From the NCBI RefSeq assembly GCF_056746865.1, contig NZ_CM163382.1: a stretch of DNA of 64,000 bases; one strand, 5' to 3'. Within the stretch, counting starts at the first letter, position 1. Every line of letters begins with the position of its first letter. Positions 14,273 through 16,810 of this stretch are shown piece after piece. A model generated the notes under the pieces. It made no database searches and was not told the DNA's origin. It worked only from the letters and a program-made list of their open reading frames with translations. Both the position numbers and the translations under genes were made by a program.

Positions 14273-14566
14273 TTATTGATTATCAACAGGAAGAAAAGAA
14301 ACCAAACGCACCCCATCCAAATCCACCGGAATACGTCTATTTTCACCCCAGGTCTGAAATTCAAAACCCGACTCGGTATTGGTCGCCCAGGCCATTACCA
14401 CATTTCCGCAACCTGCCAGTTGAGAGATTTGCTGCCAGATCATCTCCCGAATACGTTTGGACGTATCTCCGACATAAACACCGGCACGCACTTCCAGGAG
14501 CCAGATCGCGAGCCGTCCACGTAAGCGCGGAGGGACATTTTCTGTAACAACGACGACCATACTCAT
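14273..14566 (-). CDS. cas2: CRISPR-associated endoribonuclease Cas2 (type I-E)
   Basis: 97 aa [34 protein letters not shown]...; start overlaps cas1 stop (ATGA). Confidence 0.95.
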
Positions 14567-15486
14567 CCGCCGCGTCCCCGGTGACCGCTATCGCCCAGCG
14601 TTTCAGGTTCAGGGATGGCAGGCGGTAACATATCCGGCGCGGGTTGTGGTGGTTCAATTTCACCTGCGGCAAGCACTTCCTCGATTAACGGAATTAATTT
14701 GCCCGTTAACTTACTGCTACGGAAAATATCACGACAGGCCAACCTGACTTCTTTATCTGGTTCTGCGGGTTGCCTCGCTGCTATTTCAAATGCCTTTGGC
14801 ACAACCGAATCAAATTTAATGATATCGGCTATGTCATAAACAAATGAAAGCGGTTTGCCACTATGGATAAATCCAATAGCGGGCGCTTATCCCGCGGCTA
14901 ATACTGCCGCTTCAGAAATACCGTACAGACATGATGTGGCAGCACTGATGCAGCGATTCACAACATCGCCTTTTTCCCAGTCTTTAGGATCGTATTTGCG
15001 ACCATTCCATTTCACACCATATTGTTTCGCCAGTAATGCATACGTCTGGCGAACGCGGGATCCCTCAATTCCACGTAGCTGCTCCACTGAACGGCGAGCT
15101 GGCGGTGGCTCACGAAAACGTAATTCATACATTTTGCGCACCACCTTCAGACGTAGATCTTCCGTTAAAGCCAGCTTTGCCTGGTAGAGTAACTTATCAG
15201 CACGCGCCCCACCGGGTTGTCCGGAAGAGTAGACGCGAACACCCGCTTCACCGACCCAGACCAGTAGCGTCCCCACCGTGGCGGCCAGATGCACCGCCGC
15301 GTGGGAAACTCTCGTTCCCGGTTCGAGCATAATGCAGGCGACCGATCCCACCGGAATGTGCGTGCGGATCCCGGTTTTGTCGATCAGCACGAAAGCGCCG
15401 TCCAGTACGTCGATTTGACCGTACTGGAGGAAGATCATAGAGGTGCGATCTTTTAACGGGATCGGACTCAGTGGTACAAACGTCAC
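14563..15486 (-). pseudogene. cas1: cas1 (type I-E) interrupted by an in-frame TAA stop at 14887-14889
   Basis: N-terminal ORF 14887..15486 (MTFVPLSPIPLKDRTSMIFLQYGQIDV...) ends ...AAVLAAG*; the same frame continues APAIGFIHSGKPLSFVYDIADI... into ORF 14563..14802. Cas1 as I recall it has Tyr at this position. Confidence 0.85.
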
Positions 15487-16133
15487 GCCTCTGCTCCGGG
15501 TTTGATCAGCATCAGACCACAGCCGAACGCGCGGCTTTTGCCATACCCCTGGCTCAGACGTTGCAGAAATAACCCGGGATCGGTGACCGTAAGCATCCCC
15601 GTATAATCCACGCTACTGAACTGGATCAGTTGCCGGGAGTTTTCCCGCCACAGTTGCTGTTGTCGGTAGGCATCAACCGAGGTATCCAGCAGTGTAAAAC
15701 CGCTTCTCTCCCCCTGCGCTGCCAGCCAGTCCAGCGCCGCCTGTTGTTGATGCAACCAGACATCACTTCCTTCCGCCTGCCCCCTCACCTGCCGTTTCGC
15801 CTCCATCAGCAGATCGTGGCGCTTGCCCGCTTTACAGATTGTTGGATTCGCCCGCAGGTTGAAACAAAGTTGTTGTCCGGTACGCAGCTCGGGCACAAAT
15901 GACCGGCATTCGATGGTGAACGTTTCACTTTCTGCCGGGCGTTCCTGCGACAGTACAAAAAAGCGAAACGCGCCCTGGAGTTCTTCCCGACGATAAAGAA
16001 ATTGCCTTTCTTTGCCGCCAGGGAAGAGATCCCACAGCCACTGATGCATCACATATTCCCCGCGATCCACCAGATGCAGCAACTGCGCAGGCGAAAGCTG
16101 GCCGGTATGTAAGGTTATTCTTGAGAGGTACAT
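15483..16133 (-). CDS. cas6e: Cas6e/CasE crRNA endoribonuclease (divergent I-E variant)
   Basis: Start at MYLSRITLHTGQ (ATG 16131-16133, GGAGG upstream); C-terminal ...GYGKSRAFGCGLMLIKP glycine-rich motif typical of Cas6e. Confidence 0.88.
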   Translation of the reverse strand: MYLSRITLHTGQLSPAQLLHLVDRGEYVMHQWLWDLFPGGKERQFLYRREELQGAFRFFVLSQERPAESETFTIECRSFVPELRTGQQLCFNLRANPTICKAGKRHDLLMEAKRQVRGQAEGSDVWLHQQQAALDWLAAQGERSGFTLLDTSVDAYRQQQLWRENSRQLIQFSSVDYTGMLTVTDPGLFLQRLSQGYGKSRAFGCGLMLIKPGAEA

Positions 16134-16810
16134 GGTTCCTCCTTGCTGAGCCACGGCCCCTGATTGACGGTGCGTTCCCCAAACAACCATTGCTGACGAT
16201 TTAAAGGAACATCCCGGCGGCGCAATATTTTGCTCGCGACCAGGCCGTCGTGCTCCCCTTCCCACCAGCATTCATCCTGAAGTTTCGGGAGTGCGATTTT
16301 CAGGTCGTGGAAATGCTCCTGATACTGGTGATATGCGTTACGTAAAACATCAGACGCGTTGCCTTCAAGCAGTAACGGCGCAAGTGGTAATGCCAGCGGA
16401 TGACTTTTTCGCCCCAGATAAAGCGGAAAAACTGGATGGCGTAAACCGCCCTGCAACTGTTCGAGGCTGTAAGGCGCATCGGCTGTTGTTGCCACCGCCA
16501 CCATCCACCAGGCGTCGGTGTAGTAGTCGCGCCGGGAGATAATCGCGCTCAGAAGATCAGGGTCGCTCAACTCTTCGCGACGGCTGAAATAACGCGCTTT
16601 ACGCACCTCTTTTGGCATCTGGATTGTGTGATAATCCCGTGCCCAGCGCGGGTTACGGCTGGCGCAAACCACCAGTGAATAGTGGCGGTTAAACACGTTT
16701 AATCGTTCGGTATCATCACGCCGAATCCCTACCCCGGCAGCCAGCAGCCCCAGCAATGCTGAGCGCGAAGGCAGTTCATGGGTATGACGCACTTCGCCCG
16801 CTCCAAACAA
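16115..16810 (-). pseudogene. cas5: cas5e/casD remnant lacking about 20-25 N-terminal codons; fused to island att core
   Basis: Cas5e-like body (...LPSRSALLGLLAAGVGIRRDD..., ...LYLGRKSHPLALPL...) but the frame opens with only a TTG 3 codons after a stop, and the first codons overlap the 15-bp att repeat. Confidence 0.8.
16792..16806. repeat. att core direct repeat (left copy), CTTCGCCCGCTCCAA
   Basis: Identical 15-mer recurs at 36704-36718; matches the acceptor-stem/CCA end of a tRNA. Confidence 0.6.

Follow-up and report, generated by a model that had tools for sequence, protein, structure and literature searches.

The DNA analyzed here is a 64-kb stretch of an Escherichia coli chromosome (RefSeq assembly GCF_056746865.1, contig NZ_CM163382.1), called the window below; window coordinates refer to this full stretch. 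It carries a type I-E CRISPR-Cas locus that stops at the edge of an integrative island. The gene order is cysC-cysN-cysD on the minus strand, iap (11992-13029), the CRISPR array, cas2, cas1, cas6e, a fragment of cas5e, an island led by an integrase gene, and the ETT2 type III secretion island. The original prediction, made from the sequence alone, described a decayed cas locus without interference genes. Our complete-genome scans covered 5,426 complete E. coli genomes, and the main reference relatives were 118UI (NZ_CP032515), the pig isolate ETEC1747, and SCU-105.

Two lesions in the cas genes

The cas1e pseudogene (14563-15486, minus strand) is a single frame of 307 codons, in which 199 codons are followed by a TAA at 14887-14889 (minus strand) and then by 107 more codons, so that the Cas1 frame continues on both sides of one stop. 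Alignment with the intact alleles of WCHEC000837 and ETEC1747 revealed TAT→TAA as the sole change at codon 200, a single-base substitution that replaces Tyr200 with a nonsense codon. The window Cas1 aligns residue for residue, with the same numbering, with the crystallized Cas1 of strain K-12 (3NKD and others). Residues H208, D218, and D221, which form the metal-binding active site of E. coli Cas1, required for spacer integration, all lie downstream of the stop. On the Cas1e profile of NCBIfam (TIGR03638, 269 positions), the N-terminal fragment covers positions 3-195 and the C-terminal fragment positions 198-268, and no full-length Cas1e with these three residues is encoded in the window.

The original prediction had named a sequencing error at this codon as the event that would overturn it. 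A sequencing or assembly error, with Cas1 intact in reality, would fit the one-base difference from the intact alleles, yet we give it practically no weight. The 61-mer centered on the stop occurs exactly in 141 of the complete genomes, which come from unrelated laboratories, and the identical cas1e of 118UI is labeled in RefSeq by the PGAP annotation as a pseudogene with an internal stop; for these two reasons, the stop is not an error. A 199-aa Cas1 product is also called in several Logan and ENA contigs, and a further 2,074 complete genomes of the same cas1 type differ from the 61-mer by one to three bases. The cas1 stop is an old, clade-wide lineage allele, and the pseudogene was already known from the RefSeq annotation. 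Indirect hints in the literature tentatively place several of the strains carrying it in or near sequence types ST69/ST394 of phylogroup D.

Only a 3′ fragment of cas5e is present (16115-16798, minus strand), running from codon 22 to the stop codon. The match to intact cas5e ends at 16798, and the start codon, the ribosome-binding site, and the first 21 codons (63 nt) are absent. The fragment covers positions 21-228 of the 230-position NCBIfam Cas5e profile, whereas the intact Cas5e of 118UI covers positions 1-228; the N-terminal Cas5 domain match (TIGR02593) seen in the 118UI protein is lost, and the window encodes no full-length Cas5e. The neighboring cas2e (14273-14566, minus strand, 97 aa) and cas6e (15483-16133, minus strand, 216 aa) are intact, matching TIGR01873 over positions 1-87 of 87 (131.6 bits) and TIGR01907 over positions 1-207 of 208 (290.9 bits), respectively; Cas2e is identical to WP_000063172.1 of 118UI. 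The 5′ end of cas5e, cas7e, casB, casA, cas3, and cysH of 118UI have no match anywhere in the 64-kb window. These results bear out the gene-level picture of the original prediction, namely a cas1 interrupted by a single-base change, a cas5 remnant lacking its N-terminus and ending at the att core of the island, intact cas2 and cas6, and no cas7, cse2, cse1, or cas3 following.

Strain 118UI is 100% identical to the window over positions 5200-16798 (11.6 kb), including the entire array and the cas1 TAA. Its cas3, casA, casB, cas7e, cas5e, cas6e, and cas2e are all intact, and only cas1e is a pseudogene. The two lesions are unrelated in age: the cas1 stop is clade-wide, and the cas5e split is recent in a sub-lineage.

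A recurrent recombination junction in cas5e

The cas5e fragment runs into the left att core of the island (16792-16805, plus strand), which corresponds to the last 14 nt of tRNA-Gly(CCC), encoded by glyU. This 14-mer, CTTCGCCCGCTCCA, recurs as a direct repeat at 36704-36717 (plus strand, attR), and the two copies bound the 19.9-kb integrative island (16792-36717, plus strand). Beyond attR lies the native downstream flank of glyU. The remainder of the tRNA is absent, and ARAGORN found no tRNA gene in the window. Sequence identity on the island side, as it occurs beside tRNA-Gly in many genomes, starts at 16792, and identity to cas5e ends at 16798; CGCTCCA, directly beyond 16798, is the 3′ end of tRNA-Gly. 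The two identities thus overlap by 7 bp, CTTCGCC (16792-16798, plus strand), common to glyU and the antisense strand of cas5e, and this overlap is the point of strand exchange.

On the antisense strand, the intact cas5e site, which occupies codons 22-24, consists of a left arm, GGGTATGACGCA (ending in GACGCA), the overlap CTTCGCC, and a right arm, GGGGGCATCG. The attB site of glyU has the left arm GGGTTCGATTCC (ending in GATTCC), the same overlap, and the right arm CGCTCCAATTTATC, also shown as CGCTCCAATTT. The window junction joins the left arm of the cas5e site through the overlap to CGCTCCAAACAAAC. The two recombinant junctions expected of an exchange at this site are attL′, GACGCACTTCGCCCGCTCCA, and attR′, TGTTCCCTTCGCCGGGGGCA; in the window, only attL′ is visible. 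An exact scan for attL′ in IMG/VR returned a single unrelated match.

An integrase gene adjoins the junction. It encodes a P4-type tyrosine integrase (16970-18184, plus strand, 404 aa; phrog_1, E = 7e-79) with both arm-binding and catalytic domains (Pfam Arm-DNA-bind_3, Phage_int_M, and Phage_integrase); the mechanically called open reading frame starts at 16931. The identical protein is on record in 2,239 collection blocks, and among the contexts listed, 10 of 10 adjoin actS/glyU; glyU is therefore the canonical site. The island is 99.5-99.8% identical to the island located at glyU in SCU-105 and others.

Use of the cas5e site is not confined to the window. ETEC1747 belongs to a different lineage; its cas genes are only ~96% identical to those of the window, and its cas1 is intact. 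A related island of 10 kb interrupts its cas5e at precisely the nucleotide used in the window. The order there is cas3 (frameshifted), casA, casB, cas7e, the 5′ stub of cas5e, the island, the 3′ part of cas5e, cas6e, cas1, and cas2. Both recombinant junctions, attL′ and attR′, are present (GACGCA, CTTCGCC, CGCTCCAAAC at one end and TGTTCC, CTTCGCC, GGGGGCATCG at the other), with no gain or loss beyond the shared 7-mer. Such a pair of junctions is the pattern expected of a tyrosine recombinase whose overlap is 7 bp long. A near-identical second copy of the island, with a full integrase gene, sits at glyU, ~140 kb away and in inverted orientation; the secondary site was thus used in a genome whose primary site also holds a copy. 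The copy in cas5e lacks ~2.4 kb covering int, a hypothetical gene, and alpA, and this loss leaves it immobile; the cas3 frameshift and this loss were seen at positions 25246-27944 and 41124-41216 of contig L005.

The window's junction, with one single-nucleotide polymorphism in the tRNA tail, was also found in contigs of GCA_031020925.1 and SRR17709973. In the junction contigs of two related assemblies, L009 and L013, the tail reads GCTCAA instead of GCTCCA, and the contigs (L009, 1-77; L013, 1-30) end exactly 77 and 30 nt past the last core base, matching k = 77 and k-1 for k = 31, respectively. Contig ends one k-mer past the core are expected from a branch in the assembly graph if the island end has two contexts, which suggests two island copies, or a population of mixed orientation, in these strains.

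A third instance is the 42-kb contig L008 (SRR23378764), in which the 3′ fragment of cas5e leads via the core directly into the native flank of glyU and yqeG; the contig contains neither the island nor ETT2. The two contexts share just 15 nt, too short for a misjoin at k = 31, so the junction is real; it occurs in none of the complete genomes scanned. L008 is a mosaic: it is 100% identical to the window on the cas side, but only 98.0% identical to 118UI on the yqeG-galR side. The 2% divergence of this flank indicates a different background. The sequence of L008 thus probably records an event separate from that of the window, and its mosaic structure implies that either the cas region moved between backgrounds or an independent event took place in a second one. 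Altogether, the same nucleotide was used in the window lineage, in ETEC1747, and in L008, and the cas5e/island junction is present in at least three independent data sets.

The 5′ end of cas5e shows other types of damage elsewhere in the species. The first ~70 nt of the gene are repeatedly damaged in other E. coli contigs (L018, L019, L021, L024, and L010-L017). A 225-aa product read from a GTG start in the cas5e fragment is on record in other assemblies; a 231-aa product with a TTG start is not on record as a protein. Most other contigs encoding the 225-aa product have no island junction; instead, their cas5e 5′ end contains homopolymer frameshifts, a stop at Trp16, or an insertion sequence (IS). 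The Trp16 stop (TGG→TAG) occurs in three assemblies, and several homopolymer frameshifts were seen in other strains, some of which may be read errors. In GCA_046487035.1, an IS-like insertion in cas5e ends right at the position of the window's breakpoint.

Junction geometry and the fate of the interference genes

In 118UI, the glyU site is empty and the gene order is a GH15 gene, tRNA-Gly, and actS. There, glyU lies 136 kb from cas5e, and the CTTCGCC cores of the two genes are in inverted orientation. In 118UI and SCU-105, the glyU/ETT2 side and the cas side are oppositely oriented, with 136-156 kb between the former and cas5e. In the window, the far end of the island joins the normal glyU flank and then ETT2, so the junction connects segments that are oppositely oriented in the relatives. 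Given that the island, attR, the GH15 gene, and ETT2 are contiguous and that the 3′ part of cas5e is joined to the int end, the junction is of the inversion type, which a deletion cannot make.

One rival account is plain decay: the stretch running from the 5′ end of cas5e through cas3 would have been lost through illegitimate recombination at a coincidental 7-bp microhomology, and the island would lie beside the break by chance. The interference genes are indeed absent from the window, a 7-bp microhomology is typical of illegitimate joins, and CTTCGCC occurs 11 times in the 64 kb. Against such a deletion stand the opposite orientation of the joined segments in 118UI and SCU-105, the break exactly at the att core of the island, the insertion in ETEC1747 at that very nucleotide, where both reciprocal junctions are present and no sequence was lost, and the further use of this nucleotide by L008 in another background. 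We therefore regard a deletion as very improbable.

We instead favor, with a probability of roughly 0.8, two independent lesions, the second of which arose when the island's integrase recombined with a pseudo-att site in cas5e, likely followed by an inversion that displaced the interference genes. The older lesion is the TAT→TAA change at Cas1 codon 200, fixed in a whole clade of E. coli. More recently, a phage-satellite-like island, which normally enters the 3′ end of glyU by means of its P4-type tyrosine integrase, would have recombined with codons 22-24 of cas5e, with strand exchange inside the shared CTTCGCC. One copy would have been present at glyU and a second would have entered cas5e in the opposite orientation, the state seen in ETEC1747; recombination between the inverted copies, or action of the integrase on the sites, would then have inverted the ~136 kb that separate glyU from cas5e. 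The simplest route would be homologous recombination between these copies, which would leave glyU intact. This would yield the arrangement seen in the window, where the cas5e 3′ fragment, cas6e, the cas1 pseudogene, cas2, and the array adjoin the island at its int end, and attR and ETT2 come after it. Correspondingly, cas3, casA, casB, cas7e, and the 63-nt stub of cas5e are predicted to lie at the other breakpoint, outside the window.

It follows that absence from the window need not mean loss. Because 118UI has a full operon and ETEC1747 keeps cas3-casA-casB-cas7e and the stub at the other end of its island, the missing genes are likely still present; on this sequence comparison, they would most likely be found in the genome 20 to ~156 kb from cas6e. 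Hence the description of the locus as decayed and devoid of interference genes is only partly upheld: the locus is dead, but the type of the junction points to inversion or insertion, the operon of 118UI is whole, and ETEC1747 retains the genes beyond the island, all of which speak against their loss.

Several observations weigh against the proposed inversion and its site-specific origin. The predicted reciprocal junction, in which the 5′ part of glyU is joined via the core to the 5′ part of cas5e (GATTCCCTTCGCCGGGGGCA), reaches 80% coverage in 0 of the 5,426 complete genomes, and an exact scan of the JGI metagenomes for TTCCCTTCGCCGGGGGCATCG gave two matches, both to unrelated high-GC contigs. 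Since this junction would lie outside the window and was found nowhere, it is from the geometry that we infer the inversion. The window-type junction is itself rare, occurring in 1 of the 5,426 complete genomes. Outside the 7-mer, the cas5e site matches glyU at 16 of 25 positions, a similarity expected ~5 times per 128 kb by chance. Finally, if the source genome has two ~20-kb copies of the island, the path from the cas5e fragment through the island to ETT2 could be a mis-resolved repeat, the true structure being a simple insertion as in ETEC1747. In view of the modest similarity between the two sites, the case for site specificity rests on recurrence at one nucleotide and on the reciprocal junctions of ETEC1747. 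It should be noted that the two-copy route, by leaving glyU intact, would account for the failure to find a junction of glyU with the cas5e stub anywhere. ActS and Cas7e were also looked up for the reciprocal context, but both proteins are too common, and the contexts listed were canonical ones only.

The same absence bears on a variant of the mechanism in which a single copy of the island sufficed. In this variant, the integrase would have recombined the attL of the glyU-borne island directly with the pseudo-site in cas5e, splitting glyU and leaving the reciprocal junction described above. Reactions of attL with attB-like sites are not preferred by arm-dependent integrases of the λ and P4 families, and this counts against the variant. 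In its favor are the inverted orientation of the sites and L008, where the path from the cas5e fragment via the core into the flank of glyU shows no graph branch, implying that no intact glyU with that flank exists in that genome. The Thermococcales also offer an archaeal precedent of large chromosomal inversions driven by the integrases of mobile elements (PMC5495485). However, the junction it predicts is found neither in the complete genomes nor in the JGI metagenomes, the two-copy state of ETEC1747 makes homologous recombination sufficient, and the graph branches of L009 and L013 agree with an island end that occurs in two contexts. We consider a single-copy inversion unlikely.

We judge as comparably doubtful a linkage artefact, in which the island is present both at glyU and in cas5e, the assembler left the repeat by the wrong exit, and cas7e-cas3 really lie just past the island. 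The two-copy state does exist in ETEC1747, the junction contigs of related assemblies break exactly at the core, and no reciprocal inversion junction was found, all of which an artefact would account for. On the other hand, in L008 the cas5e fragment is joined to the flank of glyU with yqeG across an overlap too short for a misjoin, showing that inverted configurations are real, and the junction of cas5e with the island itself is backed by the independent data sets mentioned above.

A more far-reaching version of the favored mechanism would make cas5e a landing pad maintained as a back-up. With glyU already taken, another satellite copy would land in cas5e, knock out Cascade, and, jointly with the copy at glyU, form a ~136-kb invertible segment, possibly flipping reversibly in the population; if true, this would be a strategy by which mobile elements disable host CRISPR immunity through integration. 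The graph branches at the core in two read sets might suggest such a flipping segment. The rarity of the junction speaks for a site that resembles glyU by accident and against an evolved anti-CRISPR strategy. We regard a maintained landing pad as a long shot.

Consequences for the locus and for its classification

The locus is non-functional whether the second lesion is an inversion or an insertion, in agreement with the original prediction that it can probably neither acquire spacers nor interfere unless the missing genes lie elsewhere in the genome. As Cas1 is cut before H208, D218, and D221, no new spacers can be integrated, and adaptation is lost. Cas5e is an obligatory subunit of Cascade that holds the 5′ handle of the CRISPR RNA in the type I-E Cascade structure; with cas5e split, no Cascade can form and interference is lost. 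In addition, cas6e-cas1-cas2 have lost their connection to the promoter of the operon, which lies upstream of casA, and a simple scan of 14100-17100, including the region upstream of the cas5e fragment, detected no promoter-like site on the minus strand, weakly suggesting that expression of these three genes may be lost as well.

The type I-E array (13111-14176, minus strand) contains, by regular-expression count, 18 repeats of 29 nt and 17 spacers of 32 nt, the number of spacers given in the original prediction. Its AT-rich leader (14177-14272) adjoins cas2. The array is a frozen relic, and its 100% identity to that of 118UI fits a lineage that no longer acquires spacers. A query with the whole array was uninformative, the alignments being driven by the repeats. 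Among other E. coli records, two spacers (13628-13659 and 13750-13781) find 100% matches in a phage portal gene and a baseplate assembly gene, so the frozen array still records encounters with tailed phages. Self-targeting was considered as a driver of the break and rejected: apart from chance matches of 18-19 nt, the spacers match neither the island nor other parts of the window, and hence there is no sign that it selected for the break.

Besides int, the island encodes an AlpA-type excisionase/regulator (19338-19535, plus strand, 65 aa; phrog_2790 and phrog_66; Pfam Phage_AlpA), AntA and BRO-N antirepressors, a DUF927 primase, SSB, ProQ, an IS200/IS605-type insertion, and three large virion-protein-like genes. 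The core set of a P4-like phage satellite comprises int, alpA, an α-type primase, psu, delta, and sid. Among the 10 island open reading frames scanned, small ones being outside the scan, int, alpA, and the DUF927 primase are present and no psu, delta, or sid was detected; we file the island as satellite-like with a P4-type integrase, not as P4-like. The three large genes (27693-35040; 843, 686, and 925 aa) strongly match phage virion, internal, or ejection-type families (phrog_992, E = 4e-289; phrog_1145; phrog_684, E = 2.5e-295) and have no PADLOC match. Such virion-type cargo is unusual for a satellite-like island without other structural genes. The IS200/IS605-type element (25355-27102) replaces ~1 kb present at that position in the SCU-105 island and encodes a 402-aa TnpB that matches Cas12f models (E = 1.6e-90). 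Defense cargo was looked for and rejected, as PADLOC gave no meaningful match in the island and the Cas12f-like matches belong to this TnpB.

To the right of the island, the neighborhood of glyU (36718-64000, plus strand) comprises the GH15 gene, a GhoT-like toxin gene, and ETT2, which is known to adjoin glyU (PMC2808357). ETT2 (39150-64000) appears complete, and many genomes of this clade carry it with 100% identity.

Phage λ uses secondary attachment sites, and SGI1 has a secondary chromosomal integration site (PMC2297512). The present case resembles these systems in that the integrase gene adjoins the junction, the exchange is conservative within a short identical overlap, and by far the most genomes use the canonical site and few the alternative, which in ETEC1747 is used with the primary site occupied. 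It differs in that the site lies in cas5e and is inverted relative to glyU, so that the outcome can be a 136-kb inversion splitting the cas operon. As in known large inversions between copies or sites of mobile elements, inverted copies or sites flank a segment of more than 100 kb that flips; here, however, the inversion is deduced from one junction, and one of its endpoints lies in a defense gene.

Dead type I-E loci are common in E. coli, and as a case of CRISPR decay, this one is routine. Like other silent or degenerate loci of this type, it has an array with cas2, cas1, cas6e, and cas5e, inactivating mutations shared by a lineage, and arrays identical among relatives. Whereas those loci were inactivated by point mutations, IS elements, or deletions, one lesion here stems from site-specific recombination by the integrase of a mobile element, and the interference genes are probably displaced. 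In Streptococcus pyogenes, Varble et al. reportedly described in 2021 a prophage that integrates into the CRISPR locus as a means of immune evasion, with the CRISPR repeat as its regular attB. There, as here, a mobile element lands in a CRISPR-Cas locus and disables it; in contrast, cas5e is a back-up used only rarely, and the island is targeted by none of the spacers.

Secondary-site integration and inversions are themselves already known, and no report of cas5e as an integration or secondary site for glyU-type islands was found in the literature searched; a recurrent secondary att site inside a cas gene is thus a modestly new example. It provides a concrete pseudo-att sequence for this integrase family and shows that cas genes "missing" beside an integrase need not have been deleted. 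Surveys that score an "orphan array" or a "partial cas" locus by local context would misclassify such genomes. A tRNA-targeting island has used a look-alike site in cas5e in at least two lineages, as an insertion in one and most likely through a large inversion in the other, a natural example of a mobile element disabling a defense operon by site-specific recombination.

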